From assembly GCA_965277175.1 (NCBI GenBank), contig OZ255715.1, positions 2,941,216 through 3,005,215 on the forward strand: a stretch of 64,000 bases of DNA, written 5' to 3'. Positions within the stretch are counted from its first letter, which is position 1. Each line of letters starts with the position of its first letter. Positions 31,515-56,496 of the stretch are shown here, in pieces. A program made the translations under genes and the position numbers. The stretch is from Edaphobacter sp. (lineage in GTDB: Bacteria > Acidobacteriota > Terriglobia > Terriglobales > Acidobacteriaceae). The notes beneath the pieces are model-generated. The model ran no database searches. It saw only the letters and a list, made by a program, of their open reading frames with translations, and was not told the origin of the DNA.

Positions 31515-31525
31515 GGAAGAGCTTC

Positions 31526-38610: not shown

Positions 38611-38814
38611 ATGCAGGCTTCGATCAATACAGATGCGGACGGAATGGTGAATTGGCGGCTCGATCCAGAGGCAGCTCAGGCTGTATTCGCCAGCGTGGTC
38701 TTCGCCTCGCGATTCCACGAAGGGATTACACCCCTCGCCGTGATGGCGGCAGAAAGATTACATGGCGACGAGCAACCGCGTGCGACCGGAAGGAGAACAG
38801 AACTATGCCAGTGA
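38611..38814 (+). CDS. Small hypothetical protein
   Basis: Fills the gap between the virB3-like gene and virB4; overlaps the virB4 start. Confidence 0.5.
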   Translation: MQASINTDADGMVNWRLDPEAAQAVFASVVFASRFHEGITPLAVMAAERLHGDEQPRATGRRTELCQ

Positions 38815-41453
38815 CCTACCCGGAACACGAGAAGAAATTGAAGTCGCCCGCTGTGTGTGAACTCTTGCCGCTTCGGGACCTTCCAAGCGGCGACAACGTG
38901 ATGGTGCGCACCAATGGTGCCTTCGTCGCCGGCTATGAACTCAAAGGGGTGTTGTCTTACTTTGCCACGGACGATGACCGAAATGACTCCAAGCTAAAGC
39001 TCGAGGCGTTGTTTCGCGGCGTACCCGACGTCAGCATGCGCATCCAGTTTAGGTATGAAATCTCCGAGCACTTGGGGGAATTGCTCGAGAACTACCTGGA
39101 CCAGAGACGGGTGGAGCAGGTGGACGTCGAGGCCCTAGATGCACACCGCCTTCGGATGTGGCGACAAAAAGAGAAAGACGGATATTACTTTGAACCTCGA
39201 CTTCATATCTACTTTATTTGGGACCCGCGGATTCACGCGAAGCTATACCACTCTGCGCAACAGAACAGAAAGCTCGGTGGTTTCACGGTCAGCCAGAAGA
39301 AGGCGATTCAGCGCACCCGCAAAGAGCACGAGACCTATCTGGCGGAGTTTGAGTCAATTCTCAGGGGTGTCGAAGCCTCAATGGAGGTGGCGGCTCTGGG
39401 TCCCCGCCGGCTCTCAACGCAGGAGCTGTTTGAGGAGTTGAAGCATTCCCAACATCCCACCCGGCGTGACCATCGCCAATATGTTCCGGGCGAAGAGATG
39501 TTGGTCTATCGCAGTGCTCGAGAACAAGCAACGCAGTCGAGCATTCTCAATGAGACTGAAACCTACCTCAATATCGACGGTTATCTTTACTCCGTGATCA
39601 GCCTCAAGGAACTCCCGGACGCTACCTTTCCGGGAATGCTGCAAAAATTCTCTACGCTTGGTTTTCCAGTAATAGTCAGCGCACAGGTTGTCATCCCCGA
39701 TCAGGTGAAAGTTCTAAAGGGATACAAGAAGCGGTTGCAGAAGATGACCGCTGCGCAAAAGGATGCGAATGGCAACTTCAAGGTAAATCCCGAGGCCGAA
39801 GTCGCGCAGGCGCAACTTCTCCAGGTTCAGCGGGACATCATTTCAAGCTCCCTCAAAACGGCAAAACTAAGCCTGTCGGTGGTCGTCCGGACGTCGCGGC
39901 ATGCTGCTACCTTCGGGGAGCTTGAGCAGGCGGAACGCGAGTTAGCCAATCGGACACAAGAAGTGTTGAACGGCTTTACACATATGAATGGAGCCAAGGC
40001 TGTCGCCGAGACGATCGCCAAGCGTCGCATCTTCCTGGGAACCTTACCCGGAATGGGTGACCCAGATAAACGTGATCAGGACATGCTCACGTCAAACGTC
40101 GCCGATCTCGTCCCGGTAGAAATGCCCTGGACAGGGACCCGTCGCAGCCCACTCATCCTGTTCGAGACGCCTTATCGCCAGCTCATTCCGTATTCCATGT
40201 TCGATCCCAGCTTGTCGGATGCGAACGGATTGCTTATGGCTACAACCGGAGGAGGAAAGACCCTCTTGGCCCAACAACTATTGCTGATGGCGGCCCGGAG
40301 CAATGCGTTGATCTCCATTATAGAGAGCGGGGATTCCTACCGACCCTTGATCGAGCTGATGGGCAGCCAAATGATAGAAGTGTCCCTGGATAGCGATGCC
40401 ACTATCAATTCCTGGGATCTACCAAAGGGAGAACTGAGACCATCAAATGACCAGATCTCATACATAAAAAACCTGACCCGGCACATGTTGGGAGAGAACA
40501 CACCTCCAGACCTGGACATCGATCTCTTGGACAGTGTGTTGCTCGCTGCGATTACGTCGACATACAAGCGCTGCAGCTCAAAGTCTTCCAACCCCATTCC
40601 ACTTTTCGGGGACTTCGCCGCGGAACTGGCTCATTGGCAGGACCGAGATCGAAACCAGAAGATCAACGAAATGGCACGTCTGGCGGCGACGAAACTTCGG
40701 GTCTGGGTGGACGAGGGACCGTATGCGAAGCTCTTTGATCGGCCAACCACGGTCCCTCTCGACAGTCCTTGGCTCTACTTCAACATCGACAAACTAAAGA
40801 ACGACCCCAGGCTCGAAGGTGCGATGAGCCTCCAGATTGCTCACACTTCAATCCATCGAACTTCTGGCATGAGCGGTCGTCCGAGCTTGAGCATGATCGA
40901 TGAGTGCAAGGTTGTTTTCGACACACCCATTCTGGCGGCGACCGTCGAACGGGACTTTCTTACGGCGCGCAAACGATACGCAAGTGTCTGGGCAATCGGG
41001 CAGACCCCCGAGCAGATTGTTGGTACGCCAGCTAAGCCCAATCCCTATGGCATTGGTATCGCCAAGAATGCCAGCACGAAGATCATAGGCAAACAGCCTG
41101 GTGACATGACCGCTCATCGCGAGCACATGCACTTGAATGAGACGGCCATCAATCAGATCAAAGGGTTCGCGCAGCCGAGAAAAGGTCACAGCGCTGAATT
41201 CCTCATTGCCATCGGAGAAAAGGCTGAGTCTACGCATGTCATTCGGATTGCGCCCACTCCGGTGGACTACTGGATCACCACAACCTATCCAAGAGAGCGT
41301 ACCTATCGCAAGTGGTGGATGAGGAAGCATGACGATGTGCCATTGCTGTCTGCATACGAAGCCCTGGCCCGATCCTACCCGCGTGGCCTAGCAGAACTCG
41401 CTCCTCTTCCGGAAGAGCGTTCTGGTGAAGTACTGGAGGCATTGGCGCAATGA
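38805..41453 (+). CDS. virB4: VirB4-family T4SS ATPase
   Basis: 882 aa; Walker A ATTGGGKT, Walker B MIDEC, RKRYASVWAIGQ; RBS AAGGAG before ATG 38805. Confidence 0.9.
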   Translation: MPVTYPEHEKKLKSPAVCELLPLRDLPSGDNVMVRTNGAFVAGYELKGVLSYFATDDDRNDSKLKLEALFRGVPDVSMRIQFRYEISEHLGELLENYLDQRRVEQVDVEALDAHRLRMWRQKEKDGYYFEPRLHIYFIWDPRIHAKLYHSAQQNRKLGGFTVSQKKAIQRTRKEHETYLAEFESILRGVEASMEVAALGPRRLSTQELFEELKHSQHPTRRDHRQYVPGEEMLVYRSAREQATQSSILNETETYLNIDGYLYSVISLKELPDATFPGMLQKFSTLGFPVIVSAQVVIPDQVKVLKGYKKRLQKMTAAQKDANGNFKVNPEAEVAQAQLLQVQRDIISSSLKTAKLSLSVVVRTSRHAATFGELEQAERELANRTQEVLNGFTHMNGAKAVAETIAKRRIFLGTLPGMGDPDKRDQDMLTSNVADLVPVEMPWTGTRRSPLILFETPYRQLIPYSMFDPSLSDANGLLMATTGGGKTLLAQQLLLMAARSNALISIIESGDSYRPLIELMGSQMIEVSLDSDATINSWDLPKGELRPSNDQISYIKNLTRHMLGENTPPDLDIDLLDSVLLAAITSTYKRCSSKSSNPIPLFGDFAAELAHWQDRDRNQKINEMARLAATKLRVWVDEGPYAKLFDRPTTVPLDSPWLYFNIDKLKNDPRLEGAMSLQIAHTSIHRTSGMSGRPSLSMIDECKVVFDTPILAATVERDFLTARKRYASVWAIGQTPEQIVGTPAKPNPYGIGIAKNASTKIIGKQPGDMTAHREHMHLNETAINQIKGFAQPRKGHSAEFLIAIGEKAESTHVIRIAPTPVDYWITTTYPRERTYRKWWMRKHDDVPLLSAYEALARSYPRGLAELAPLPEERSGEVLEALAQ

Positions 41454-42292
41454 ATGTAGAAGTGAAATCAAACGAGCGGCTTCCGAATGACATCCCCCTT
41501 TTGGGGAGCGAACCAGCCCAAGGGCTGGCCTCTCAATCTCGACGGAAAAAGAGGTTGAGGATCGCCCTTCTGATTCTGGCGACCACCGTTGCGCTGCCAA
41601 CTTTGGGACACGCGCAGTTCCTGACTGCCTTCGACTCGATCTTCAAATCCATTCAGAGCGACATCGGTAGTTCATTGAGCTCTGTCAACCAGATCATGCA
41701 ACAGGTGACAAAGCTGTACCAGACGACGATCGCGCCTCTGGCCGCCCTCAATCAAGCTCGCGGATTTGTCGCCAATTCGATCTCTAGTTTTCGTAACTCA
41801 ATGAACCAAACATTCAACACGCCATTCACAAGTGCGGTTACGCCCGGTCCGCAACAGTTCGAGTCGATCTTGCACAGTCGGCTTTCAACCCAGATTCCGT
41901 CACTTCAGACGAGCTTCACCACGAACTACGGGGCGATACCCCAGGCCAACACCGCATCCCCGCAGGATCGCGTGATGATGGACATGGACGACGCGCTCGG
42001 TCAACAGAACCTGAAGACGACGTTAGTCGCGGATCAAGGTCAAGATCTCATTCTTCAGACTGCGAACCAGATGGAAAATCAGGTCGCGGTAAGCACTCCT
42101 GGTTCGAATCCATACCTCACCGCACAGGCACAGGTCGCAAACCTCCGGTGCCAAGCCTACATGCAAATGATGATTGCGGCAGAACTGCGCCAGGAGGCCG
42201 GCCGCATCGCTCACGACAATGTTCTCGTCAAGCGCAGGACCACCATGACCGGTGGAGTGAACAGCCTCATCACAGGGACGCTGACCAAATAA
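41450..42292 (+). CDS. VirB5/TrbJ-like secreted helical protein A
   Basis: Signal peptide (GHAQ), Q/N/T-rich helical; lies between virB4 and virB6. Confidence 0.55.
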   Translation: MNVEVKSNERLPNDIPLLGSEPAQGLASQSRRKKRLRIALLILATTVALPTLGHAQFLTAFDSIFKSIQSDIGSSLSSVNQIMQQVTKLYQTTIAPLAALNQARGFVANSISSFRNSMNQTFNTPFTSAVTPGPQQFESILHSRLSTQIPSLQTSFTTNYGAIPQANTASPQDRVMMDMDDALGQQNLKTTLVADQGQDLILQTANQMENQVAVSTPGSNPYLTAQAQVANLRCQAYMQMMIAAELRQEAGRIAHDNVLVKRRTTMTGGVNSLITGTLTK

Positions 42293-42302
42293 GGAGGACG
42301 CC

Positions 42303-43211
42303 ATGACAGATCCAACGAGAACCCCCGACAAAGTTCGCAGGCCATTCTTCTGGTGGAAGAGACAGTCTACGCCGGAAGCTATAAGACCCATTCTGGTGAG
42401 CGACACAGACACACAGTCTTTGAAGCGTCCCTGGTATCGATCGACGGCGCTCAAGATCGGAGGTGTTGCCTTTGGTGTCTTGCTCATCGTACCGAACCAC
42501 GCGCGCGGGCAGTTCGGCATCGACACCGCGGCGATTATGGCGGCCTTGTCACAAATGCAGTCGCTCATGAACACCTATATCGCGGCGCCTCTAAAGACGA
42601 TTAGCCAGTACGAGCAAAGCGCAGCGAAGTACGAGCAGCAGGTGATGTATCCGCTGACGGCGATCAATCAGGCCAAAACCTCCGTGATGCAATCTGAAAG
42701 CCAATTCACCCAGCTGAGCAATATGTTCCGTACGGTGAACGTTTCGAGCGCCACTCTGCCGCAATCGCAAAACCTCGAGTCATCGTTGCTCTCGCGTAAC
42801 GCCGCCAACGTGCCAACCGTCTCGACTCAATATCAACAAGTCTACGGCGTCGTGATGGCGCAAAACACGACGTCCCCTGCGGTTCGCACTATGACGGATA
42901 TGACCGACGCTCAGGCTCAAGACTCCATGAAAAGAGCGATAGAGATCGACGCATTGGCGACGGCGGAACTCAGCGAAGCGGACCAAATGGGGCAGCAGAT
43001 TACGCAGGCAGCGCCGGGCAGCGCTCCCATCCTGGAGGCGGAAGCGGATGTATGGGTGGTCCGCGCCAATGCCTATACTCAGGCCGCACTCGCCGAATTA
43101 ATGCGAACTCGCGGAATAGACCTTGCCAATCAGAGCAAGGTCGCGAAGCTCGCAACCACAGACAACACCAGCAACAACAACCTCATCAACGGATCGCTGA
43201 CGAACAGGTGA
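42303..43211 (+). CDS. VirB5/TrbJ-like secreted helical protein B (paralog of A)
   Basis: PLTAINQAK versus PLAALNQAR; TDMTDAQAQ versus MDMDDALGQ; APGSAP versus TPGSNP. Confidence 0.55.
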   Translation: MTDPTRTPDKVRRPFFWWKRQSTPEAIRPILVSDTDTQSLKRPWYRSTALKIGGVAFGVLLIVPNHARGQFGIDTAAIMAALSQMQSLMNTYIAAPLKTISQYEQSAAKYEQQVMYPLTAINQAKTSVMQSESQFTQLSNMFRTVNVSSATLPQSQNLESSLLSRNAANVPTVSTQYQQVYGVVMAQNTTSPAVRTMTDMTDAQAQDSMKRAIEIDALATAELSEADQMGQQITQAAPGSAPILEAEADVWVVRANAYTQAALAELMRTRGIDLANQSKVAKLATTDNTSNNNLINGSLTNR

Positions 43212-43218
43212 CACCATC

Positions 43219-44643
43219 ATGATGTTCCTTCACCCCAATGTCGCCATGCTCGCGTTCTTTCAGGGAACGCAACTAAGTCTGTTCGAACGATTTTTGACGC
43301 AGGCTGTTTCTGGGATCAGCTCGACCGGCATCACGTCTGGTATGCAGAACGCAGCTTACGTCGTGCTACTAGTTGGTTTCCTTTGGCAGATGTACCAATC
43401 TGCCTTACATGGAGGAGATGTTCGTGGTCTCGGAACGAACCTTGTGAAGTATGTCGTCACGGCGATCGTTGTGATGAATTACAGCGCCATCTTCACTGCG
43501 GTGAACACAGGCTTCGTGAATGCTGGCAATTGGGTGGGTAACGCTTCCAGCTTTGGCAACCTGCTCGACAACTGGAAGACCGATCTTCAGACCCAGTTCA
43601 ACCAAGCTGGATCTCAAAAGTTATGGGGGCTCGTAACAGGCGATATCCCTGGCCTTATAGACGCAATCTTAATTATCGTCGCCTATCTCCTTTACCCATT
43701 CGTCATCGCGATCTTCGGATTCTTTTACATCTTTTATGGCAGCGTACTTTATATCTTTGGTCCGATCGTGATTGCGCTTATGCCGCTTGGTGCCACGAAC
43801 CGAATCGCCAAAGCCTACGTCGAGAACCTCTTCATTTGGAATTCTTGGCCAATTCTCTATGGCGGTTTTGGGGCTCTACTGGGCGCGGTTCAGATGGGTC
43901 AAATCAGCCAGATGTTGAGCCAAAACAACTTTCTTGGTGGCCTCGGGAATCTTGAAGGTTCCATCCTGATTGGCATTGCGAGCATTATCTATTCCCTGGC
44001 AATTGCGGTAATCCCTTTTATCGCCAAGAGGATTATTAGCGGTGACGTCGGGTCTACGGCCGGCGCACTGATCGGTGCTGCGGTGACGGCGCTAACAGTG
44101 GGTGCAGCAGGCGTTGAGGGCGCGGTCGCGGGCGCATCCGGTGCCGGGGCAGGCGGGAGTGGAGCTGCCGGAACTGGATCTGGCGCCGGGGGGTCGGCTA
44201 CAGCCACATCTACAGGCAAAGGCGGATCGGAAGTTGCCGGGGGAGGCTCGAACCAACCGGCTCGGCCGCAGGGCAGCCCAAGGGTGGCAGCGCAGAATCT
44301 GGCCGATCAGGGGTTCGGAGGTTTCAGCGGTGGTCCGACGATCGAAGGTCACGCAGAGCAGATGCGGAGTTCCTTGAGTGACGCTCTAGGCGGAAACGAT
44401 ACGAACGGCGAGGGGGAGACCACAGCCGGGCCAACCACCCCTGGGACCAACGCAGCTTCGACAGGTACGCGCGGTAGTAGCGGCACTACCAGCGGCGGAG
44501 GCAGATCGTCGCAGCCAGCCAAGAGAGGGCCAACCGTTCATCGCTACAACATCGGCACCTGGGGAACGTATCACGCCGCGCGGCTGGTGGCGCGCACCGT
44601 GGCGAGTGCCGCAGGAACTAAGGACAGCGACGGCAAAAACTAG
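43219..44643 (+). CDS. virB6: VirB6/TrbL family protein
   Basis: Polytopic TM core, FGPIVIALMPL, long G/S/T-rich C-terminal tail. Confidence 0.8.
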   Translation: MMFLHPNVAMLAFFQGTQLSLFERFLTQAVSGISSTGITSGMQNAAYVVLLVGFLWQMYQSALHGGDVRGLGTNLVKYVVTAIVVMNYSAIFTAVNTGFVNAGNWVGNASSFGNLLDNWKTDLQTQFNQAGSQKLWGLVTGDIPGLIDAILIIVAYLLYPFVIAIFGFFYIFYGSVLYIFGPIVIALMPLGATNRIAKAYVENLFIWNSWPILYGGFGALLGAVQMGQISQMLSQNNFLGGLGNLEGSILIGIASIIYSLAIAVIPFIAKRIISGDVGSTAGALIGAAVTALTVGAAGVEGAVAGASGAGAGGSGAAGTGSGAGGSATATSTGKGGSEVAGGGSNQPARPQGSPRVAAQNLADQGFGGFSGGPTIEGHAEQMRSSLSDALGGNDTNGEGETTAGPTTPGTNAASTGTRGSSGTTSGGGRSSQPAKRGPTVHRYNIGTWGTYHAARLVARTVASAAGTKDSDGKN

Positions 44644-44651
44644 GAGGACCC

Positions 44652-45395
44652 ATGAAGAGCAATACCATTGCAACAGCAGAGCCCATCACGGTCGCACCCA
44701 AATACTATGAAGTGGACGGAGCTTTGAAAGCGAATGCCAACAAGGCGTGGCTTCTTGCGTTTCTGACCGTTCCCATCGCCCTGCTCGCCATCGGGTTTGC
44801 GATCTTCGTGCGGCTACAGCCTCCGACGGTGATTCGCATTGGCCCCAACGGTGAGGCCGTCGTCTTAGGCAGACCGGCAAAGGGTTCGTCCGTCGATCCA
44901 TCGTCCACAGGCACGGATCAATTTCTCGACCAAGCATTTGCGAAGCGGTTTCTTGCCACGTACCTGAACTACTCTCCTGCGGACGTTGATGATCACTGGG
45001 CCAACAGTCTAAACATGATGACCCGCAATCTGCGCGCATACACGATCAAGGCAATGGCTGACGACAACACGCGCGGAAAGATCGATGACGATCAGATCGA
45101 ATCGGTGTTCCATTTGCGCGAGATCGAGCCCGTCACCGGCGAGCCTCTTACTTATCTCATCTACGGGGTGAAAGACGTTCACCGACTGTCGAAAGGCACA
45201 GAATCAACGGACCACTTCGTCAACGAATACCGCCTCCGCCTAATTGCTGACCGGCGCTCGGATGTGAATCCAGATGGGCTTTGGATCGCGGAGTACAGCG
45301 AGCGCCCGATTGACGGTGAGCGCCGGGACCGCATCCTGAACGCACCGGACGCAACACCGGACAGCGGCGTTTCAGACAATAAAGGAGGCCAATGA
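44652..45395 (+). CDS. VirB8/TrbF-like protein
   Basis: Single TM, QPPTVIRIGPNG, NTF2-like region FAKRFLATYLNYSP, GLWIAEY. Confidence 0.7.
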   Translation: MKSNTIATAEPITVAPKYYEVDGALKANANKAWLLAFLTVPIALLAIGFAIFVRLQPPTVIRIGPNGEAVVLGRPAKGSSVDPSSTGTDQFLDQAFAKRFLATYLNYSPADVDDHWANSLNMMTRNLRAYTIKAMADDNTRGKIDDDQIESVFHLREIEPVTGEPLTYLIYGVKDVHRLSKGTESTDHFVNEYRLRLIADRRSDVNPDGLWIAEYSERPIDGERRDRILNAPDATPDSGVSDNKGGQ

Positions 45396-45694
45396 TGGAA
45401 ACAGCAGTTGCGAAGGGCGCGGAGTTACAGCCGGTTTCCGGTCCACCGGCCGAACCGAGACGAGCCCGGCGGCCTCGTCAGCAGACGGAGGAGATCGTTC
45501 GCTACTTTCTGGCCAAGGAGGGATCTTCCCCGGAGAAGCCGGAGCTTGGAGTGGAAGTGGCCAGCGAAGGCGAGGCCTTGATCAAGGCATTTCAGTCCAA
45601 AAATGGAGTTATTTATACCCTCCTTGCTTACAAGGCGGAGGCGGAGATACAGGGAGGATCTCCGACATTGGTAAAGCGACCCCTGCGCAAATAG
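45392..45694 (+). CDS. Hypothetical protein
   Basis: ATGA-coupled ORF with RBS GGAGG. Confidence 0.6.
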   Translation: MMETAVAKGAELQPVSGPPAEPRRARRPRQQTEEIVRYFLAKEGSSPEKPELGVEVASEGEALIKAFQSKNGVIYTLLAYKAEAEIQGGSPTLVKRPLRK

Positions 45695-45930
45695 GGCCGC
45701 TTGGTCACGGGATTCAAAGAGGAGACATACCTGAAACACGGCTAATGTCCACCTCCTTTGACGCCTTATCGCTTTTGCGATGAGGAATTCCGCTGACCCG
45801 GTTTGCACTCTCGAACCTGGCTCGGTCTACACCCACCCCTAACCCGGGCGGCCAGGTGAAGAGATAAAGAAACCGGCGATCAGCAGGTCTCTTGTCACTT
45901 CGTTGGAAGCGCCAGACAAGTGAGGAGAAA

Positions 45931-48513
45931 ATGACAGCGACTAGGACACAGAACACGGCGATCAACCATCAGCTCATTCTCGAGCTGAAGATTGATGCGT
46001 CCGGACAAGTGACTCGTAAACAAAGCAAGCTGGGCAGGAAGGATACGCTCGAGGGCAAGCTCCTTGCGCAAGTCTATCCGGGCATCCAGGTAGCGCGTGT
46101 CAGTGTGCCGTTTGAATTGGCGCCGTATGAGCAGTCAGTGGTCGAGAACACCATGATGAAGCTCTCCTATGGCGGGGTCGAGTACAGGCTCGTCGGTGCG
46201 AGTGGTTCGGCGAAGGATGGCAAGTTTTACTTCGTTGATCAAACGCACGCCGGCAAGATTGCTGAGCGCTTTCAGCATTGGCCCGAGGCAGCGATCGTGT
46301 ATTTCGCGATCCTCGTCTCCGACTGCAAGCTAATGGTAGAAGAACCTGATCTCCGTATCGCTGTTGTCGAGGACCACGTCCTTGGCACCAACGATTGCAG
46401 GGGTTGGGCGCGTGAGTCTCTCTACAAGAAGCTGAAGATCGGCACCAACCGTTTTTGCCAGTTCCGGTTAGCATTCGATGTTCGCGAACCGAAACAGGCG
46501 AAGGGTGCTCTGAAGGCGATGAGCGATCGCGTAGCCGAAAGGCTCGGGGTTGATCTTATTCTCCCGGAGAGCGCCTGCAAACCAGCGTTGAAAGGAAGCG
46601 TTCGCTTCCTTCCTCAGTTGGGAACCTCCGGCCGCATGTACACCGGACCAGCGTATCTCGGGATCAAAGAAGTTTCTCGAGTATCGGAGTTCGGGTCGAG
46701 CTACACATTGATCGAACATGCATCGGAAGACGCTCTTCAGTTTGAGATCATGCTTTGGGCTCTCAAACGGATCAGCAAGCTGAGAAAGGCTTGGGACGAA
46801 GGCGACTATCAGGCGTTGTTCGAGATCATCGGGAAATCCGAGATCGCCGCGAACGATGATGATGTCAGCTTCGATCCTGATTCACTGGAGCAGGGACAAG
46901 ATTCTGCTTCGGAAGGATGGGACCCGGCAGAAGCTGTTCTCTTGGCTGACCGCACCGGAAACGCAATTAAGTTCCCGTATGTGTTCAATCAACTGAACCG
47001 CAAGTTGGCACGTTGGGCCTTTCGTACCTGTACTGGCGGTGATCTGAAACTACCAGCGTTCGCTCTCGCGGATGATGGAGTGCTCATCGAGCATCGAGGG
47101 AAGATCATTTCGGCTTCGGATTGGATTCCCGAGGACACCTCCATTACGTCCCTGACGGCAGAAAAGGGTCTTTGCGTCCGGTACCCCATCCGGATGCAGG
47201 AGGACCTCCTTCCAGTTCGTCACCTCACTAATAACGAGTTCGTCCCGATGTTGAAACAGGCATTGGGCGCACCCGATCTTGATGAATCGGTGGTTGCTCA
47301 CATTCTTGATCGTCAGCTTCGCATGGAGGGAACCTACATCCTTCACTCGAAGACGGCCAGCAAGAACGGCGGTGACTTCGATTTCGATACCATCTGCGTG
47401 ATGCCGTCCGATCAGTTCCCAAAGTTTATCGAGGGAAGGATCGCGTACGGAGAGAAGTTTCAGCAGGAAAAGACCAAGCATAAGAAGGCGAAGTCTCCCT
47501 GGTGGAATGTTTATCTGGTTGCCATGAAGGCACGGGGAAACAAGATCGGTTCCATCACCGATCTTAAGACCTCATGTCTAGCGGCGGGACGGCCTGATTT
47601 GGCTTACAAGCTCGTCGAGCAACTCCAGAACGCACTCGATTCTTTGAAACACAAGGTCGAGATTGATGAATCCGTCATAAGCGACATCCGGAAGGAGATA
47701 GCACCGGCACCTTGGCTCCGTTACAAACGTGAGCGTAAAGTGTCGGATCTACCGGCCCATCTGAACGATGTTGCAAGCACGGACAAGGTTGGAAGGCTCT
47801 ATAACGTACTGCGCAAGGAATTCGGCTTTCTGCCCAGTCCGACTGACGGCAACTTCGAAGAAAGAATGTCGATTGAGGATTTTCGCGGACTCTTTACAGG
47901 TGAGACAGTCACCCGAGAGATGTTCGAGGAATGCCAACTCGTCAATTCAATCTACGGAGATATCGCCAGTCGAATTGTCCAACGGGAAGAAGAGATCAAG
48001 CTGCAGCTCAAGAACGCTCAGGCTCTATGGGAGGCCGTCCGCAAGAGTGAGGACAAGGAACAGCGAAAGTCTGCTGTCCTTGCTCGCAATAAAGCGCAGG
48101 CGGCCCTTTGGGAGCATGAGAAGGATGCGAAGGACCAGTTCAGTTCGCTCCATCTATTTGTGCATTATTGGGCGCAAGGCAAGGAAGAAAACCGTCGGGC
48201 ATGGGCACAGGCGATGAACACCATCGTAACTGGTGGCACAGGCTCGGGGGCGGTACTCTTTCAGGCTTTCCCTCAAGAGGTTGTCGATACCTTTGCGGAG
48301 GTCACCGGCGGCCAAAAGGTTCGTGTACGTCTTCCGAAAACCATCAATGGACACGTTCGGTTTGACCCTGAGCAGCGAGCCTGGCTCGTCGAGCGCTTGG
48401 TCAATCCCGAAGGCCCTGAAGGTGAGAAGAAGGTCTTTCTCTTTCAATACAAGGGAAAGCGGAACCTGGTCTTCGAAAACACGAGTGCTCCGGCTGTGAT
48501 GGAGAACTCTTAA
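45931..48513 (+). CDS. Putative single-subunit two-barrel RNA polymerase (RdRP/YonO-like)
   Basis: Ordered motifs YRLVGASGS, NDCRG, QFR...KG, SACK, RYP...EDL, GGDFDFD (47368-47388), IGSITD, ALDSLK; RBS GAGGAG. Confidence 0.75.
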   Translation: MTATRTQNTAINHQLILELKIDASGQVTRKQSKLGRKDTLEGKLLAQVYPGIQVARVSVPFELAPYEQSVVENTMMKLSYGGVEYRLVGASGSAKDGKFYFVDQTHAGKIAERFQHWPEAAIVYFAILVSDCKLMVEEPDLRIAVVEDHVLGTNDCRGWARESLYKKLKIGTNRFCQFRLAFDVREPKQAKGALKAMSDRVAERLGVDLILPESACKPALKGSVRFLPQLGTSGRMYTGPAYLGIKEVSRVSEFGSSYTLIEHASEDALQFEIMLWALKRISKLRKAWDEGDYQALFEIIGKSEIAANDDDVSFDPDSLEQGQDSASEGWDPAEAVLLADRTGNAIKFPYVFNQLNRKLARWAFRTCTGGDLKLPAFALADDGVLIEHRGKIISASDWIPEDTSITSLTAEKGLCVRYPIRMQEDLLPVRHLTNNEFVPMLKQALGAPDLDESVVAHILDRQLRMEGTYILHSKTASKNGGDFDFDTICVMPSDQFPKFIEGRIAYGEKFQQEKTKHKKAKSPWWNVYLVAMKARGNKIGSITDLKTSCLAAGRPDLAYKLVEQLQNALDSLKHKVEIDESVISDIRKEIAPAPWLRYKRERKVSDLPAHLNDVASTDKVGRLYNVLRKEFGFLPSPTDGNFEERMSIEDFRGLFTGETVTREMFEECQLVNSIYGDIASRIVQREEEIKLQLKNAQALWEAVRKSEDKEQRKSAVLARNKAQAALWEHEKDAKDQFSSLHLFVHYWAQGKEENRRAWAQAMNTIVTGGTGSGAVLFQAFPQEVVDTFAEVTGGQKVRVRLPKTINGHVRFDPEQRAWLVERLVNPEGPEGEKKVFLFQYKGKRNLVFENTSAPAVMENS

Positions 48514-48517
48514 CCGT

Positions 48518-48560
48518 AAGGGAGAAGCTTGGCATATTGCCGGCTTCTCCTTTGCTTTTT
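48518..48560 (+). terminator. Intrinsic terminator after the polymerase gene
   Basis: AAGGGAGAAGC...GCTTCTCCTTT stem with an inner TGGCA/TGCCG stem, followed by a T-rich tail. Confidence 0.7.
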
Positions 48561-48586
48561 ATCAGAGTGTGCCCAAGGAGGCCGCT

Positions 48587-49432
48587 ATGAAGATGCTCAT
48601 CACCATTCCGATCGCCTTGGCGATGACCGTGGCAGGGGCACAAACGACCAGCCAAAATCAGATTCGTCATGTGGAGACATCGCTGAATCATCTGACGGTC
48701 CTCGAGTTCGGCGAACCCGTGTCTACCATTGCCGTAGCTGATACCGACAGCTTTCGCGTGGAACATCACGACGACAAAGTCTTCGTCGAGCCGCTTCGCG
48801 AAGGGGTTGCGACCAATCTGTTCATCTGGACCGAATCGCGCCAGCTCACCTACGAACTTGATCCCGCCGGACAGTTAGCAACCATGGACGTCCTCATTCG
48901 GACCGAGCCTGCTCCCAAGCCTCATAGTGTCGCGAACGCTTCCGCGGAGCCAAGCGACGCTGAGATCCGTAAGATGGCATCCCTTGTTCTGACGCAGGCG
49001 ATGATGGGGGTACAGGACGTGTCCCACGATGGCTCCAAGTCCATTGCCGATCGAGTGCAGGTTGATCTCGAGCAGGTCTATCGTGCAAAAGACCAGCTCT
49101 ACATTCGCTACTCCATCACCAATCAAACGAAGGAACCATTCCGGCTCACGACTCCCGATGTGTCCGCACCGCTTCCCACCCAGTTGCCGATCTCTCTATT
49201 GAGCTTGCGCAACCACCAGCTCTCGACTCAGACGTTCGATGCCTTCAAGGCAAAACCCGGCAGCACTTTTACGGTGGTACAAGCTGAATCCTTAGGCCAC
49301 GATCTAGCTCCAGGCCAGAAGACCACCGGAGTGCTCAGCATTGGAAGCCCTCAGGGGAACCCACCCCAGCTCTTTCAACTCAATTTCGGCAGCGACCAGG
49401 GTAAGCCTCTCAAGGTTGAGGCCGTCCTCTAG
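48587..49432 (+). CDS. Second VirB9/TraK-like secreted protein
   Basis: Signal peptide; LTVLEFGEPVSTIAVA, KVFVEP, TNLFIWT resemble the N-domain of 33241-34191. Confidence 0.55.
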   Translation: MKMLITIPIALAMTVAGAQTTSQNQIRHVETSLNHLTVLEFGEPVSTIAVADTDSFRVEHHDDKVFVEPLREGVATNLFIWTESRQLTYELDPAGQLATMDVLIRTEPAPKPHSVANASAEPSDAEIRKMASLVLTQAMMGVQDVSHDGSKSIADRVQVDLEQVYRAKDQLYIRYSITNQTKEPFRLTTPDVSAPLPTQLPISLLSLRNHQLSTQTFDAFKAKPGSTFTVVQAESLGHDLAPGQKTTGVLSIGSPQGNPPQLFQLNFGSDQGKPLKVEAVL

Positions 49433-49434
49433 TC

Positions 49435-49671
49435 ATGGACGCGCAAGGCCATGTCACGCCAGAGGAGATTCGCAGAGCGCTCCTCACGATGTATCGAGGC
49501 GATACCGAATCGAATCTGCAGCGCGCGCTCCTTCGCCTCCTGGCCGACGATCTCAAACCTATTGATGAGCGAGGCCGCTGGAAGCCAAGCCCGCTTCTCA
49601 TTCTGATCGTTGTTCTTGTCTGCGCCCTGGTTGGAGTTTTCCTTTACTTCACGATTGGAGCCCGTCGATGA
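49435..49671 (+). CDS. Small membrane protein
   Basis: C-terminal TM helix; coupled to the T4CP gene. Confidence 0.6.
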   Translation: MDAQGHVTPEEIRRALLTMYRGDTESNLQRALLRLLADDLKPIDERGRWKPSPLLILIVVLVCALVGVFLYFTIGARR

Positions 49672-51464
49672 GTCCTGCATACGAACCACCTCCACGGAGG
49701 TTTCAACCGGGACCCGAAGATGTGACCGGCGTCCTTGTCCTTTTCGGATGTGCTGTGCTGGCCTTCGGCTGGTATGTCGCCGTCTCCCGATTGCACCTAC
49801 GCAATTCCCAATGCCTCGAACTCTTCATGGACTTTGCCGTGCTGTTTTTCGGTGGTGGGCTCGTGATCGCCCAACTTGCGGGCAAGAGGCGCAAACGCGA
49901 GGAGAACTGGCCCCATCCTCCTCTCTTTGTTCCGTCGCTCACAGACAGCAAAATCGCTCGTGAGACCAATCGGGATGCCGCGACGTTGCTCGGATATAAC
50001 GTCCACGAGGAGCCTTGGCTGTGGCCCGATGTCGTTCGCATGAAGCACGGTGTCATTGTCGGTGGCACCGGCGCGGGCAAATCGACGTTCCTGGAAAATA
50101 TCATTGCTCAGGACCTGATGCGTCGATTTGGGAGCCGCAAGATGCCAATGATCATCTTCGACGGCAAGGGCGAACGGGAATTCCTTGACCGCCTTCTGCC
50201 GCACATCGAGGCGGCTGGGCGTCTGCAGGACCTCCGTGTTCTCGATCCGACGCACCCCACAGAGTCGGCTCGTTACAACCCCTTCTATGCACTCGACGAC
50301 GCCTATCAGGAGCACGTTAATTTCGTCTTTCGGTCTTTCGGCTTGCGAGAGGATTTCTTCAAGGGGCACCAGGAAGCGTATTTGTCCGACCTTGTTCGCA
50401 TCCTCCAGTACACCGGCAAGCTGTTCAATGTATACGACGTGTTGGTCATGGCACTCGACGAGAACGTCCTCCAGGAGCAGATAGGGATCGCCAAAGGCCG
50501 CCTTGCCTCTCTGGCCGGCGTCTCAATGCAAAGGCGATTGAACTTTGAGATGTCGGTGCGGATGTTACAGCGGTCCCTCGCCGACCGGGAGCGCGTGGAG
50601 AAGATTCAGGGATTATTGAACGAGCTTCTGAGCTTTCTGGAGGACGAGCTTTCCATCGTAACCGGGTCATATCAGGATCTCTTGACCCTGGACGATGTAT
50701 TTGAGCAAGACCTTATTCTGTTCGTCTCGCTCAACACGAATCGCAATCAACGTGCGGTCGAGGCTCTGGGAAAGATCCTGCTGCAGAACATCCAGCTCAT
50801 GGTCGGCAAGCGTTACGCGCGCGCCACCGGCGAGAGAGACGCGAACGAACCGATGCTCTCGGTGATCCTCGATGAGTTCGCTCCGTTTGCCTATCCGGGA
50901 TTTACGCAAGTTCTTCAGACCGCACGAGGCGCCAGAGTGTCTTTCCTGTTTTCTTTCCAGAGCCTGCCCCAGTTGCAGCGGGTTAGCCAGGCATTCTCAG
51001 ACGAGGTATCCTCCGCGCCGGGCACCAAGATGATCATGAATGTGTCCGAAGAGAATACGGCGCAATGGTTCCTGAAGGCGTCAGCCAAAGTCACGACAAA
51101 ACGTCGCAGCTTATCTGTACGCAGGACCGGCCTCTTCTCGCCCAAGTACACCGAAACCGGGACCGGCAGCGAGAGTGACATCAAGGAAACGCGAGCGCGG
51201 GAAGACCACATCAAGAATCTTCCCGTGGGTCAGATGGAGATATTGATGGTGGACAGTCGAGAAGGCACGCGCTACTCCCACCTCCATGTCCGTCGTGCCC
51301 CCAGCTTCCGCATCGAGGGGCTCGCCCCGCGGCTCTATCCGAAGATGCACAGTTATCTTGACCCGGAAGTTGGTGTCAACCTCCGTTTCAAAGAGACAGA
51401 GAATCGAAAACAACGACGCAGAAGAATGGCGGGAGTATCTCTCGACACGTCCACAGGAGAGTGA
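49668..51464 (+). CDS. Type IV coupling protein (VirD4/TraG-TraD family)
   Basis: Two TM helices, GGTGAGKS, FDGKG, YNP, ILDEF, ARGARV..FSFQS. Confidence 0.9.
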   Translation: MSPAYEPPPRRFQPGPEDVTGVLVLFGCAVLAFGWYVAVSRLHLRNSQCLELFMDFAVLFFGGGLVIAQLAGKRRKREENWPHPPLFVPSLTDSKIARETNRDAATLLGYNVHEEPWLWPDVVRMKHGVIVGGTGAGKSTFLENIIAQDLMRRFGSRKMPMIIFDGKGEREFLDRLLPHIEAAGRLQDLRVLDPTHPTESARYNPFYALDDAYQEHVNFVFRSFGLREDFFKGHQEAYLSDLVRILQYTGKLFNVYDVLVMALDENVLQEQIGIAKGRLASLAGVSMQRRLNFEMSVRMLQRSLADRERVEKIQGLLNELLSFLEDELSIVTGSYQDLLTLDDVFEQDLILFVSLNTNRNQRAVEALGKILLQNIQLMVGKRYARATGERDANEPMLSVILDEFAPFAYPGFTQVLQTARGARVSFLFSFQSLPQLQRVSQAFSDEVSSAPGTKMIMNVSEENTAQWFLKASAKVTTKRRSLSVRRTGLFSPKYTETGTGSESDIKETRAREDHIKNLPVGQMEILMVDSREGTRYSHLHVRRAPSFRIEGLAPRLYPKMHSYLDPEVGVNLRFKETENRKQRRRRMAGVSLDTSTGE

Positions 51465-52219
51465 AGATGACCCGGCTTTCAATGACTCTCTGCGCGCTGA
51501 TGCTTGCTTTTGCGGCCCCCTCCTCCGGCCAAACGCTCAATCCGGCAGCGCCATCGCAACATCCCCCGCGCAAGCAGGAGGGTTTCTTTGACTTCGTGCT
51601 CGGCAAGATCAATCCCAGCGGAAACGACTATGGCGCGCGGATGCAATCCGGCCGGGATGCTGTCGTTGTAAACACGGTCGATGATTTGTATTTCTGGTCG
51701 AATGCAATGACCCTCCTTTTGCTCACCGGATCGGTGGCCGTCATCTTGTTGCAATGGAGATCGGAGGCCAAAAGAGAGGTCATCACCGCGTCCATCATTG
51801 CCGAGCTTTGGAACGGCCGGGTCAGCGATGGAATAGAACTCAATCGCCGCACAGAGCAGTTCAATCAGCTTGTCGCCACTCACAATGCAGACGTAGAGAA
51901 GGCTCTCGCGCTCAAGCAGCAACAGCAAGGGTCGGACAAAGAGACATCAGGGAATCTCACTCGGAACGTTCGCAAGCTCACAGAGAATGACTCGAGCACG
52001 GGACGGAAGGCTGTTCCTCCCGAGCCGCCAGTAGTTGAGGTGGCCAATGTTCCTGCTGCGGATGGCGGCAGTGGGAATCTACAGCAATCCAATCTGTTGC
52101 TCCAGCGAAGGATCGAGGCGATGCAAAACACAGAGCAAAACCTGAAGCAACGTCTCAGCCAAACGACCGCCCTCCTCGATCAGGAGCGCCGCCGCAATGC
52201 CACCCTCAAGGGCGCATAG
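51461..52219 (+). CDS. Hypothetical exported/membrane coiled-coil protein
   Basis: Signal peptide, one TM helix, C-terminal heptads. Confidence 0.65.
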   Translation: MKMTRLSMTLCALMLAFAAPSSGQTLNPAAPSQHPPRKQEGFFDFVLGKINPSGNDYGARMQSGRDAVVVNTVDDLYFWSNAMTLLLLTGSVAVILLQWRSEAKREVITASIIAELWNGRVSDGIELNRRTEQFNQLVATHNADVEKALALKQQQQGSDKETSGNLTRNVRKLTENDSSTGRKAVPPEPPVVEVANVPAADGGSGNLQQSNLLLQRRIEAMQNTEQNLKQRLSQTTALLDQERRRNATLKGA

Positions 52220-52229
52220 AAAGGTCGAT

Positions 52230-52904
52230 ATGCCCATCCGGAGCAGAACCGAATTTGCCAGCCAGGAAGAATGGACCGCGTACGTGCGCGATTTCGTCCC
52301 AGTCGTTGAGTGTGAGTACGTCCTCGCGTGTGGACGCACCGAACTATTCAAGAGCTTCTACGAAGTGCGGAAGCAGGAGTTTCCCGCTGAATACACAGAA
52401 GAATTGGGGCGCATTCAAACCCTCTCCGAACCTCGCCGGACCGACAGCCTTCAGCGTTTGAATGAGCGAATCTTTGCCGGCCTCACGGAATTGCTGTTCC
52501 ACCAGACACAGCTCAAACGAATCGAGGCAGCTCCACTCGCTCCCGTTTCTCTGAAGGAACAAGTCCAGGAGTTACTAAATCATCTTGCGGAGAAGAACCC
52601 GTACTTCGCCCTCTGGGTTGATTACAAGCGAGGACTTGCGGAGAACTTACAGACACAAGACTGGGATCAATATCTGCGGAAGGAACTCGGACCAGCCGAC
52701 GAGGACGCCATCGTCTTCGCCAAAGCGATGGCCGATCTGGACAAGCTCCTGCTCCATTTCCGGGATCAGAACGTGCCATTGCCGCGTTATTTCTTCGAGC
52801 GTGCCTGGTTCCTTCACTATTTGCGCAGCCCGGAACGGATGCTCCAGACACGAGCTCTCTTGAACACACTTGCCACGGAGACCGGGGAATGTACGTGCGC
52901 GTAA
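52230..52904 (+). CDS. Hypothetical protein
   Basis: In-operon ORF with RBS. Confidence 0.65.
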   Translation: MPIRSRTEFASQEEWTAYVRDFVPVVECEYVLACGRTELFKSFYEVRKQEFPAEYTEELGRIQTLSEPRRTDSLQRLNERIFAGLTELLFHQTQLKRIEAAPLAPVSLKEQVQELLNHLAEKNPYFALWVDYKRGLAENLQTQDWDQYLRKELGPADEDAIVFAKAMADLDKLLLHFRDQNVPLPRYFFERAWFLHYLRSPERMLQTRALLNTLATETGECTCA

Positions 52905-53425
52905 TCAACTTCGGAACGAACTGGTGGATGATGCACCCATCGGATAAGGACGATCCTTACTGCTTTCGCCGGCGCGCGGCCTACTTCAATGCGGCAGCTC
53001 TGAAATCGGGCAGGCGCCTTCATCACAGTGCGATCTATCCCGGACAAATCAGGTTCAACACACAAAGCGGATTCGATCCGGAGTTTCCGTCGCGCGCGAT
53101 CGGTAGGACATTTCTCTGCTCGGGGCCTAACCAGTTCGCTGGGAAAGTACATCTCCTGTTCCAACGATTGGCGAAGGACGTCGATCCAGACGGCTATTTG
53201 GTGGTTCTCAATTCGTTTGAGCATGGCCTGATTCGGTTCCGCGAACCGGGGTGGGCGTCGTCTGGTGTGAACCCGATCTCGATCAGCATGAGAGGTCAGA
53301 GGTTCGAAGCCATGCTGTTGCTTAGAGCAGGCGATTGGATTGAAAGCGATCTCGGGCGCTGGCGTGTAAGCGAAAACGGTGACGGTCTCTCACTCTTCTA
53401 CGGGCAGGACGGTAGGTTCTCATGA
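52889..53425 (+). CDS. Hypothetical protein
   Basis: Overlaps both neighbours; ATGA-coupled to the relaxase. Confidence 0.65.
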   Translation: MYVRVINFGTNWWMMHPSDKDDPYCFRRRAAYFNAAALKSGRRLHHSAIYPGQIRFNTQSGFDPEFPSRAIGRTFLCSGPNQFAGKVHLLFQRLAKDVDPDGYLVVLNSFEHGLIRFREPGWASSGVNPISISMRGQRFEAMLLLRAGDWIESDLGRWRVSENGDGLSLFYGQDGRFS

Positions 53426-56371: not shown

Positions 56372-56437
56372 CCCTGATGCTCCCGGATACGGCGGGCTGG
56401 ACGTGCCACAAGAGCACATCCGCCCGCCGATCTGGCA

Positions 56438-56453: not shown

Positions 56454-56496
56454 GGGTCCGGGGTACAACCACACAGCTGAGAAAGGAGACCCCGAT

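Follow-up and report, generated by a model that had tools for sequence, protein, structure and literature searches.

A predicted two-barrel RNA polymerase encoded in the conjugation module of an ICE family

Genes for conjugative transfer in a mobile element of Edaphobacter sp. surround an intact open reading frame of 860 amino acids whose product resembles a polymerase, and the question raised by this locus is what such an enzyme might do there. The gene, here called POL, occupies positions 45931-48513 on the plus strand of the 64,000-nucleotide stretch of DNA that was analysed (the window), as read from its translation. The longest possible reading frame begins at a TTG at 45892, but this codon is probably not the real start; an AGGAG Shine-Dalgarno sequence at 45923-45927 precedes an ATG at 45931, which is taken as the start instead. 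A preliminary description of this DNA interpreted the product as a two-barrel RNA polymerase of a conjugative element. This interpretation is supported by the match of a predicted structure, by an invariant Asp triad and by the ICE context of the gene.

The AF2 model of POL (pLDDT 85.6, pTM 0.82) was compared with PDB structures by using Foldseek. The top matches are 8f72, 8f5m, 6vr4 and 8h2n (E 2.5e-8 to 4e-5), and all six matches at E <= 0.001 are to chains from four RNAPs of the single-subunit two-barrel type, namely Thermus phage P23-45 gp64, P74-26 gp62, crAss-like phi14:2 gp66 and P23-45 gp96. The non-virion transcriptases gp64 and gp62 stand first in this list. The matches that follow are isolated DPBB domains (7di1, probability 0.92; 7dg9, probability 0.85) and, weakly, RNAP beta'. 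The structural agreement is modest, with TM-scores of 0.34-0.54 on the target, and about 10% of residues are identical. A search of BFVD structures yields eight phage matches at E <= 0.001, one of which comes from a crAss-like phage. Thus, the double-psi barrels that had been predicted for POL find counterparts both in two-barrel RNAPs and in isolated double-psi beta-barrels. The likeness proposed to phi14:2 gp66 is likewise recovered, whereas QDE-1, which had been named beside it, falls outside the top 50 PDB matches. From the reading frame, the model and the Foldseek matches, assignment of POL to the single-chain two-barrel (double-psi beta-barrel) nucleotide polymerases, in the clade of phage single-subunit RNAPs, YonO and eukaryotic RdRPs, is strongly supported by prediction.

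Every motif string that had been listed for POL is present in the translation where it was said to be. LSYGGVEYRLVGASGSAKDGKFYF corresponds to L78-F101 (46162-46233). The beta-like barrel region (approximately residues 134-255; 46330-46695, plus strand) is predicted from a strand-rich block of the model and from invariant or nearly invariant residues. It contains VVEDH..TNDCRGW (46363-46407, with D155 at 46393-46395), QFR (Q177-F-R179, 46459-46467), AKGALK (K191 and K195) and PESACKP (46564-46584, with PESACK spanning P212-K217). The beta'-like barrel region (approximately residues 373-492; 47047-47406, plus strand), delimited by alignment, model and homologue counts, carries R417-Y-P419 (47179-47187) and the metal loop GGDFDFD (G480 to D486, 47368-47388). 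Conserved helices follow the loop at 47539-47649 on the same strand, where nearly or fully invariant columns define the patterns GN.IG.IT (N537, G540) and LQ..LD.LK (Q566, D570, K573); the string LQNALDSLK ends with K573 at 47649. The secondary structure of the model further indicates a C-terminal two-helix coiled coil (residues 662-749) and a small beta domain (residues 808-840), together at 47914-48450 on the plus strand, and family searches returned no match that would give these parts a known counterpart.

There are 26 sequences in the POL alignment (A1), which reaches down to 29% identity. No variation is seen at Q177, R179, K191, K195, P212, K217, P218, R417, P419, G481, D482, D484, D486, N537, G540, Q566 or K573, and conservation reaches at least 90% at D155, D425 and D570. 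The motifs are not chance strings. The three metal-binding Asp residues, D482, D484 and D486, are intact as proposed, and they are also present in 167 of 167 homologues that span the loop. Conservation of the complete DFDFD loop holds for this triad but not for position 4, which is F in 154 of these homologues, G in nine and Y in four. The invariant R417-Y-P419 lies 62 residues before D482, and POL fits the published filter for two-barrel polymerases, [RK]xPx{20,100}DxDxD, in which R-x-P is followed by the metal loop (PMC10770324 Supplementary Data 4). Eight invariant residues of the two-barrel superfamily have been listed, and the R-x-P residues are the equivalents of Rpb1 R446/P448 (PMC2919709). 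The basic residues R179, K191 and K195, together with D155, all lie within the first strand-rich block, and they are candidate equivalents of Rpb2 K979, K987 and D837. That the residue classes defining a two-barrel active site (DxDxD, R-x-P, and the candidate second-barrel basic residues with an Asp) are all intact is strongly supported by prediction.

Searches with the POL sequence against Pfam, NCBIfam, PADLOC and, with phmmer, the PDB produced only noise and no family. The A1 profile has no match among PDB sequences, and tblastn of POL against 50,697 phage records gives nothing under E 1. Membership in PF05183, a family that had been proposed for comparison, is not upheld, because POL itself has no Pfam match at E <= 1 and its relatives score 13.6-23.7 bits, all under the gathering score of 23.8 bits. 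Three of the 26 A1 members match this family at E <= 0.1. The highest score (23.7 bits) belongs to relatives on cyanobacterial plasmids, and relatives from the T4SS clade with a DxDGD loop reach 13.6-16 bits over the same segment, PF05183 positions 426-560, which is the metal-loop barrel. PHROG 4291, an 'RdRP' family, aligns to POL residues 471-582 with E 0.013.

The eukaryotic RdRPs of PF05183 (QDE-1, RDR) belong to the same superfamily as POL, and one possibility is that POL copies RNA templates as they do, with the resulting dsRNA or antisense RNA serving in regulation, exclusion or defence. The weak Pfam RdRP similarity among its relatives and its high expression in the resident state (see below) would suit this role. 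However, no Argonaute-, Dicer- or defence-type partner is found nearby, PADLOC returns no defence match, RNAi partners are absent, and POL has no PF05183 match of its own. In addition, the gene is strictly linked to T4SS genes, and the closest structures are those of DNA-dependent phage RNAPs. We consider an RNA-templated function very improbable.

The best Foldseek matches, P23-45 gp64 and P74-26 gp62 (8f72, 8f5m; E 2.5e-8 to 6.7e-7, probability 1.0), are Thermus phage non-virion RNAPs that transcribe the phage's own genes (Nat Commun 2024, PMC10770324). Like POL, they are encoded by mobile elements and consist of one chain with two fused double-psi barrels, R-x-P, DxDxD and, after the loop, a conserved (L/I)Q..(L/V)D..K helix. 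They differ from POL in having about 10-11% identity, 616 rather than 860 amino acids, a phage rather than an ICE as carrier, and the loop ADYDGD with Gly at position 4. POL has in addition an extra N-terminal domain, the coiled coil and the C-terminal beta domain. A bulky residue replaces this Gly both in POL (DFDFD) and in the virion RNAP phi14:2 gp66 (DFDID; 6vr4, E 1.9e-6). The gp66 paper bears out the statement in the preliminary description that this enzyme is active with DFDID, and it reports that each loop Asp is essential and that the template is single-stranded or denatured DNA. The protein enters the cell with the phage DNA. Unlike POL, gp66 is packaged in the virion and has 2180 amino acids, about 1600 of them unrelated, with no detectable sequence similarity.

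YonO of the Bacillus prophage SPbeta, which transcribes late phage genes (Forrest et al. 2017, PMC5467207), is also a single-chain RNAP of about 840 amino acids encoded by a mobile element. The motif series that POL was said to share with YonO is collinear by eye (S..S/K, D-G.G,.R...KG, S..K, R.P, D.D.D,.D..K) and is aligned from the D-loop onward, but the profile-sequence comparison (hhalign of A1) is not significant, with E 0.11 over 176 columns in which the motifs are in register. The YonO loop is DNDGD, and YonO itself has no Pfam match. The same comparison with gp64 gives E 0.075 with the D-loop and following motifs in register. It places POL GGDFDFD on gp64 GADYDGD and YonO FDNDGD, and the post-loop LQ..LD.LK helix on gp64 IQVAVDRQK and YonO FTIDFAK. 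Given these E values, neither alignment is taken as evidence of membership.

The closest relatives of POL in annotated records are YonO-like proteins of cyanobacterial plasmids, such as WP_281010132.1 of Pseudanabaena galeata pPg_05. Four of them are found by tblastn with E 1e-16 to 3e-13 and 82-85% coverage. They have all core catalytic motifs in common with POL, with 57 identical columns in a five-sequence alignment, and differ from it in showing 22-24% identity and a canonical DFDGD loop. There are no T4SS genes within 12 kb of the pPg_05 relative. 'YonO-like proteins' in cyanobacteria were noted by Ruprich-Robert and Thuriaux 2010 (PMC2919709), and the relatives described here are possibly the in-house profile 'Cyano_RUMTOR_01356' of PMC10770324. 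No description of POL was found in the literature searched, and a survey of polyvalent proteins of conjugative elements makes no mention of two-barrel polymerases. Iyer and Aravind 2012 and Iyer et al. 2003 reportedly may describe 'transposon relatives' of RdRPs.

POL lies among genes for conjugation. An integrase, a VirB4-type ATPase, a coupling protein, a relaxase-like gene and mating-pair genes are found in one block by Pfam and NCBIfam, and by this gene content the element is an ICE with a T4SS, as described earlier. The element (ICE-2) has a tyrosine integrase at 29792-31057 on the minus strand (Pfam Phage_integrase, E 1.4e-13) and a TrbI/VirB10 gene; the other features given here with coordinates are on the plus strand. 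Pfam matches and synteny define the mating-pair block upstream of POL (38652-45694), which comprises VirB4/TraC (38652-41453), o280 and o302, TrbL/VirB6 (43219-44643), o247 (44652-45395), which is called VirB8-like from a faint match of its counterpart in locus L089, and o100 (45392-45694). The downstream block (48569-54201), defined by Pfam, NCBIfam and synteny, comprises a CagX/VirB9-like gene (48569-49432), o78, a VirD4-type coupling protein (49668-51464), o252, o235 and o178, and o259, a MobC-family relaxase-like gene (53422-54201). A candidate oriT is placed at 54.2-54.5 kb. Next to ICE-2 lies another element in tandem, recognised by a tRNA gene and a second integrase.

The order of 14 genes around POL is kept in about 80 loci of Acidobacteriota, always running VirB4 ... 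VirB6, VirB8-like, POL, VirB9-like, coupling protein and relaxase-like, and in these loci the conservation of POL matches that of VirB4 and the coupling protein. The VirB4/VirB6/VirB8-like - POL - VirB9-like/coupling-protein arrangement recurs in four distant loci (L002, L003, L089 and L090), and relatives with this arrangement show 29-45% identity to POL. In another, L088, gene order is rearranged and the linkage of POL to T4SS genes is loose. There are at least 499 POL loci among GTDB species genomes, as well as distant metagenomic relatives. That POL belongs to the core of the conjugation module in this large family of ICEs, and is not cargo, is strongly supported. Its place among structural T4SS genes could also mean that POL is a non-catalytic structural or scaffold component with a leftover polymerase fold. 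This is scarcely credible, given that the catalytic residues show little or no variation among lineages that share 29-45% identity, and that the protein has no evident signal peptide or membrane segment and is modelled as a soluble enzyme.

The same element encodes an AEP-type primase (AEP-TOTE; 56377-57444, Pfam E 5.9e-24), and such a primase co-occurs with POL in the distant elements L088 and L090. This bears on whether POL might act solely as a replication primase, which would supply the excised element in the donor with short primers for its rolling-circle or lagging-strand replication and would take no part in transcription. Two-barrel enzymes such as QDE-1 and gp66 can start de novo on ssDNA, and excised ICEs of some families replicate, both of which speak for this role. 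However, because a dedicated and co-conserved AEP primase is already present, the role is downgraded, and the size of POL and its conserved post-loop helices resemble those of processive RNAPs. We therefore regard it as unlikely, although less so than RNA-templated synthesis.

POL is preceded by a conserved non-coding leader of 236 nucleotides (45695-45930), identified from alignments. Its pairs are retained far more often than in slid controls (77.8% paired versus 35-52%), 17 pairs are changed on both sides, and the MFE z-score is -2.9. One hairpin, CCUUAUCGC/GCGAUGAGG (45764-45785), shows compensatory stems and a free loop, and another, local hairpin is predicted to pair the Shine-Dalgarno sequence at 45923-45927. 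Rfam offers no known RNA family for the leader, its sole match in the window being a tRNA. Leader motifs considered as a possible POL promoter each occur only once in the window. A scan of 44.6-49.8 kb for the sigma-70 consensus finds no sites versus 2.1 expected, a result that is uninformative for an acidobacterium. Just past the POL stop codon, a consensus scan reveals a terminator-like hairpin (48529-48553), which is weak evidence when taken alone.

POL is a separate, abundant transcript in two soil metatranscriptomes from one study. Depth over 45.8-48.5 kb is 31-59 in run X29 and 8-14 in run X28, as derived from contigs in RNA runs that were selected for containing POL words; in both, the T4SS genes on either side have almost no depth, and POL is the most covered gene of ICE-2. 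The RNA contigs cover the leader from about 45730 and end at 48468-48516. Mapping bias was rejected as the cause of this enrichment in X28 and X29, because it persists at 80% likeness and coverage in DNA runs is flat across the same 19 kb. Two other RNA runs (X25 and X37) cover the whole element at a low level, and the POL-specific pattern is thus not universal.

A separate motif, AATTTGACYGAGTTT, is present in three copies in the window (31499-31516, 36601-36618 and 56438-56455), all found by motif search on the plus strand, whereas none of 100 shuffles contains three copies. It heads three other ICE operons and has no copy ahead of POL. The second copy is located about 65 nucleotides ahead of the pilin/T4SS operon. 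The third lies about 40 nucleotides ahead of an RBS and an ATG (near 56497) that begin the AEP-primase operon, and it is conserved at the corresponding position in 18 related loci. Nothing convincing of this kind is found in the distant, partial loci L002, L088 and L090. With TTGAC in its sequence, the motif may be no more than a sigma-70 -35 box of the host combined with a site for a regulator.

These observations lead us to favour, with confidence that is about evenly balanced, a model in which POL is an active, Mg-dependent, DNA-templated RNAP for the element's own DNA. The reasons are its fold, intact active site, core-gene status, separate expression, leader and the distinct motif. In this model, POL would have a transcript of its own, arising from the conserved spacer ahead of it and made earlier than those of the T4SS genes and separately from them, and the structured leader, by pairing the ribosome-binding site, would gate its translation. 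The polymerase might then start at element-specific sites, for which AATTTGACYGAGTTT at three operon heads is a candidate, and transcribe the operons for transfer and establishment independently of host RNAP specificity, in the way that gp64 and YonO serve their phages. The POL mRNA is not sufficient to turn these operons on, because it is abundant where T4SS mRNAs are absent.

The fixed place of POL between VirB8-like and VirB9-like genes, with the coupling protein nearby, fits at least equally well with a role during transfer itself. Perhaps POL is made in the donor and crosses the T4SS with the T-strand, or is made early in the recipient, and acts on ssDNA to yield primers or early transcripts. 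Such an enzyme would be to conjugation what virion RNAPs are to phages, and would parallel the primases Sog and TraC. Sog (R64) and TraC (RP4) are transfer-region primases that are exported to the recipient, where they make RNA primers on the incoming strand (cited in PMC5512222). As polymerases encoded in conjugative transfer regions they are the nearest functional precedent for POL, from which they differ in their unrelated fold (DnaG/TOPRIM type). The position of POL inside the mating-pair cluster, adjoining the coupling protein, is fixed even in very distant elements. Moreover, two of its four solved structural relatives are injected with DNA (phi14:2 gp66 and P23-45 gp96), gp66 transcribes single-stranded or denatured DNA, and POL mRNA that appears before T4SS expression fits a stockpiled protein. 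However, the best structural matches are non-virion enzymes, POL is not co-transcribed with the T4SS in the RNA data, and the element already has an AEP primase that accompanies POL in distant elements. A polymerase acting at the time of transfer is consequently a possibility that we rate clearly below transcription of the element's own operons. More tentative still is the fuller proposal that POL is an obligatory transfer protein of some conjugation systems. A leader-gated mRNA would supply a store of it in the donor, and it would pass the T4SS with ssDNA and, on arrival, prime the strand, transcribe it or do both, as a counterpart of virion RNAPs and a bacterial sister of the eukaryotic RNAi polymerases that works on ssDNA.

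We know of no account of conjugation that includes an element-encoded RNA polymerase; relaxases, T4SS parts, coupling proteins and sometimes primases are the usual components. The two-barrel RNAP described here holds its place in the transfer module as firmly as VirB4 or the coupling protein does, which points to a step of RNA synthesis in bacterial conjugation that has so far gone undescribed. The structured 236-nucleotide leader, the separate POL transcript and the distinct motif upstream of three other ICE operons are also new here. With POL, the clade that includes the eukaryotic RNAi polymerases gains a large bacterial branch linked to conjugation, which is relevant to the origin of those enzymes, and enzymology gains compact RNAPs of a single chain whose metal loops are unusual (DFDFD, DYDFD, DFDYD). 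If POL is active, these ICEs would transcribe themselves independently of host promoter specificity, which would bear on their host range, or, alternatively, an imported enzyme would make RNA on the transferred strand.

The polymerase gene POL occupies window positions 45931-48513 on the forward strand, and its translation is a single 860-amino-acid protein without interruption. It opens with an ATG at 45931 that is preceded by AGGAG (45923-45927), and the longest ORF over the gene opens at a TTG at 45892, a start used by some public gene calls (872-873 amino acids). Every peptide string read in the preliminary description is found in this translation at the coordinates it gave, including L78-F101 (46162-46233, forward strand), D155 within TNDCRGW, Q177-F-R179 (46459), P212-K217 (PESACK), R417-Y-P419 (47179), G480-D486 (GGDFDFD, 47368-47388) and K573 (47649).

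There are more than 1,400 database clusters that match POL, all labelled 'hypothetical protein' and derived from Acidicapsa, Telmatobacter and soil metagenomes, and with clustering at 50% identity an exhaustive search gives 564. Judged by sequence, POL is a member of a very large unannotated family. At least 499 POL loci are present among GTDB species genomes, and the best 80 of these are nearly all labelled Acidobacteriota (Terriglobales, Bryobacterales), with one 'uncultured bacterium'; the window's own 4.73-Mb genome carries a single copy. In A1, an alignment of 26 full-length homologues with identity down to 29%, the invariant residues are Q177, R179, K191, K195, P212, K217, P218, R417, P419, G481, D482, D484, D486, N537, G540, Q566 and K573, while D155, D425 and D570 are at least 90% conserved. 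The residues of the active site all have conserved candidates in POL, those of the second barrel with a putative 3D placement, and a purely structural role for the protein is unlikely. As proposed earlier, the three metal-loop aspartates are intact, being present in all 167 homologues that span the loop. Conservation of DFDFD as such extends to this triad and not to the fourth position of the loop, where 154 homologues have F, 9 have G and 4 have Y (loop variants DFDFD, DYDFD, DFDGD, DYDGD, DFDYD and DGDGD). The POL family thus includes the canonical glycine form, with the bulky-residue loop as its derived majority.

Interrupted or truncated copies are found in some related genomes, suggesting that POL is occasionally inactivated. 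One match to the 860-residue protein is stretched over 3.4 kb (L083:8001-11439), which suggests an insertion. Two other loci match only residues 1-564 (L071:8001-9692) or 209-860 (L058:8001-9953), and the best segment begins about 660-870 nucleotides late in three more (L064, L066 and L070).

There is no meaningful match to POL in Pfam or NCBIfam and none in PADLOC, PDB sequences return noise only, and PHROGs yields one weak match (family 4291, 'RNA-dependent RNA polymerase', E 0.013, residues 471-582). The AlphaFold2 model built from A1 is confident (mean pLDDT 85.6, pTM 0.82, 494 residues at or above 90), and Foldseek matches it to six PDB chains at E <= 0.001, all of which are single-subunit two-barrel RNA polymerases: P23-45 gp64 (8f72, two chains, E 2.5e-8 and 1.6e-7), P74-26 gp62 (8f5m, two chains, E 1.3e-7 and 6.7e-7), crAss-like phi14:2 gp66 (6vr4, E 1.9e-6) and P23-45 gp96 (8h2n, E 4e-5). 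The next matches are isolated double-psi beta-barrel domains and, weakly, beta' of bacterial RNAP and Pol IV of plants. Of the two structures anticipated in the preliminary description, gp66 was recovered and QDE-1 is absent from the PDB top 50. Eight predicted viral structures, including one from a crAss-like phage, also match at E <= 0.001. It is strongly predicted that POL folds as a two-barrel polymerase and that its catalytic set is intact. The suggested likeness to the motif series of YonO, the SPbeta RNAP, stands in part: FDNDGD and FTIDFAK of YonO align in register with GGDFDFD and LQNALDSLK, but the profile-to-sequence score is not significant (E 0.11). The same is true for gp64, where GADYDGD and IQVAVDRQK align with these two motifs (E 0.075, not significant).

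Cyanobacterial plasmid proteins match 82-85% of the POL length (tblastn E 1e-16 to 3e-13) and have the core catalytic motifs in common with it, with a DFDGD loop. One of these proteins reaches 23.7 bits against the Pfam RdRP family, whose gathering score is 23.8, and T4SS-clade members whose loop is DxDGD score 13.6-16 bits over the same part of the profile (positions 426-560). Via such relatives, sequence likeness bridges POL to the RdRP family. That POL is itself an RNA-templated enzyme is improbable. No T4SS gene is located within 12 kb of the cyanobacterial plasmid copy inspected. Phage and plasmid single-chain two-barrel RNAPs form one clade with eukaryotic RdRPs (PMC10770324), and cyanobacterial and firmicute 'YonO-like' proteins of unknown role were pointed out in 2010 (PMC2919709). 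The kind of enzyme, a single-chain two-barrel RNAP, is already known.

The element carrying POL, called ICE-2, is a conjugative ICE. It encodes an integrase (29792-31057, reverse strand), a MoxR-type AAA ATPase (31830-32750), TrbI/VirB10 (34200-35519), VirB4/TraC (38652-41453), TrbL/VirB6 (43219-44643), a CagX/VirB9-like protein (48569-49432), a VirD4-type coupling protein (49668-51464), the weakly matched MobC-family replication-relaxation (relaxase-like) protein o259 (53422-54201, NCBIfam E 1.1e-9), a PAPS-reductase-like protein (54470-55291), an AEP-TOTE primase (56377-57444), a Rad52-type annealing protein (58917-59813) and a methyltransferase (61651-62724). A tblastn search for the 14 genes around POL, covering about 80 related loci, gave one invariant gene order: VirB4, o280, o302, VirB6, o247, o100 and POL, followed by VirB9-like, o78, coupling protein, o252, o235, o178 and o259. 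POL identity in these loci is mostly about 75-86%, conservation equal to that of VirB4 and the coupling protein, and the same arrangement surrounds POL in metagenomic relatives at 45%, 35%, 34% and 33% identity. In the distant locus L088 (29%), small genes, an AEP primase and a PLD nuclease lie between POL and the VirB9-like and coupling-protein genes. These data strongly predict that POL is a fixed core gene of the transfer module. A faint VirB8 match to the counterpart of o247 (44652-45395) in L089, another distant relative, makes this ORF the probable VirB8 equivalent.

A second, unrelated element lies upstream in tandem (2080-29600) and has no POL homologue. It includes a tRNA (2080-2151) and, all on the reverse strand, an integrase (2249-3400), a TrwC relaxase-helicase (22179-24881) and a TrwB-type coupling protein (24890-26965). 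Its cargo includes epimerases as well as an aldo-keto reductase and an AraC regulator.

The AEP-TOTE primase family also accompanies POL in the distant elements L088 and L090. This co-occurrence makes it less likely that POL serves as a primase only. The main rival possibility is that POL is a transfer-time enzyme working in the recipient on single-stranded DNA, perhaps after export through the T4SS. The gene adjoins that of the coupling protein, there are virion RNAPs among its relatives, and gp66 prefers ssDNA; we regard this reading as less probable than the one favoured below.

There is a 236-bp spacer (45695-45930) in front of POL, whereas neighbouring genes abut or overlap, and L089 and L090 have similar gaps of 331-338 bp before POL. 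Alignments show that the spacer is conserved even between loci with no more than 50-86% identity in the POL protein. Its hairpin CCUUAUCGC/GCGAUGAGG (45764-45785) has a freely varying loop, and the stem is kept in divergent loci by compensatory changes (CCUCGAU/AUCGAGG, CCUUGGU/ACCAAGG, CCUUGUCAC/GUGGCGAGG and CCCUAC/GUAGGG), with G-U pairs workable on the forward strand only. Further elements of the leader are a long helix, GCUGACCCGG...CCGGCGAUCAGC, and a local hairpin in which the Shine-Dalgarno sequence is predicted to be paired. Its minimum-energy fold has a z-score of -2.9. Projected on the leader alignment, the fold pairs 77.8% of cells versus 35-52% in slid controls, a figure biased in its favour by derivation of the structure from one aligned sequence. 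There are 17 pairs changed on both sides, and the covariation score was reached by none of 500 shuffles. The Shine-Dalgarno-pairing stems show little covariation, and thus masking of the ribosome-binding site is a prediction only. The leader (45695-45930) matches no Rfam family.

Near-identical POL sequences are present in metatranscriptomes of soil, wood decay, peat and permafrost. In the soil RNA runs X29 and X28, contig depth, even with likeness relaxed to 80%, is 31-59 and 8-14, respectively, over about 45.83/45.87-48.52 kb and near zero over the flanking T4SS genes; contig depth is a poor expression measure, RNA runs were picked through POL words, and these two strong runs come from one study and are not independent. 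DNA runs of the best-matching sample give flat coverage across the same 19 kb. Elsewhere in ICE-2, only the integrase (29851-30854, reverse strand) has specific-looking coverage in X28/X29 (depth 3-13), where many contigs fit only partly and may stem from other integrases. Coverage of up to about 14 near 58.4-58.9 kb looks non-specific, since the partial contigs continue unlike the window. A terminator-like hairpin (48529-48543) follows the POL stop codon, in other runs the RNA contigs take in the leader hairpin, beginning at about 45730, and X25 and X37 show low-level coverage of the whole element. There is thus strong indication that POL is transcribed in nature, apart from its neighbours. 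In the DNA run X1, from the best-matching sample, contigs break at 45658-45825 and 46224-46308 as depth rises from about 100 to 150-286, suggesting several ICE variants that share this stretch. A low-depth X1 joint (depth 15, 22 nucleotides on the shorter side) skips 47318-49808; it could represent either a deletion variant or a chimeric contig.

There are three copies of AATTTGACYGAGTTT in the window, all on the forward strand (31499-31516, 36601-36618 and 56438-56455) and each 40-65 nucleotides upstream of the ribosome site with which the leading gene of an ICE-2 operon begins. None of 100 shuffles contained three copies, the downstream copy (56438) is conserved in 18 related loci, and no copy precedes POL in the window. 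The motif, a candidate promoter or operator specific to the element, holds TTGAC, a -35-like core. The true start of the AEP-TOTE primase is probably near 56497, where a ribosome-binding site and an ATG follow the third copy, rather than 56377.

POL would synthesize RNA on the element's DNA. We favour self-transcription of the element by POL because the best structural matches to it are phage transcriptases of the non-virion type, because it has its own putative promoter and leader, and because a distinct upstream motif is common to the other operons. This choice is tentative, held at a little under even confidence within an overall statement that, as written, we consider about evenly balanced. 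Nowhere in the literature searched did we find a two-barrel RNAP described as a conserved part of a T4SS or of the transfer module of an ICE. It is this conjugation context that makes the polymerase, whose function is putative, of high interest.
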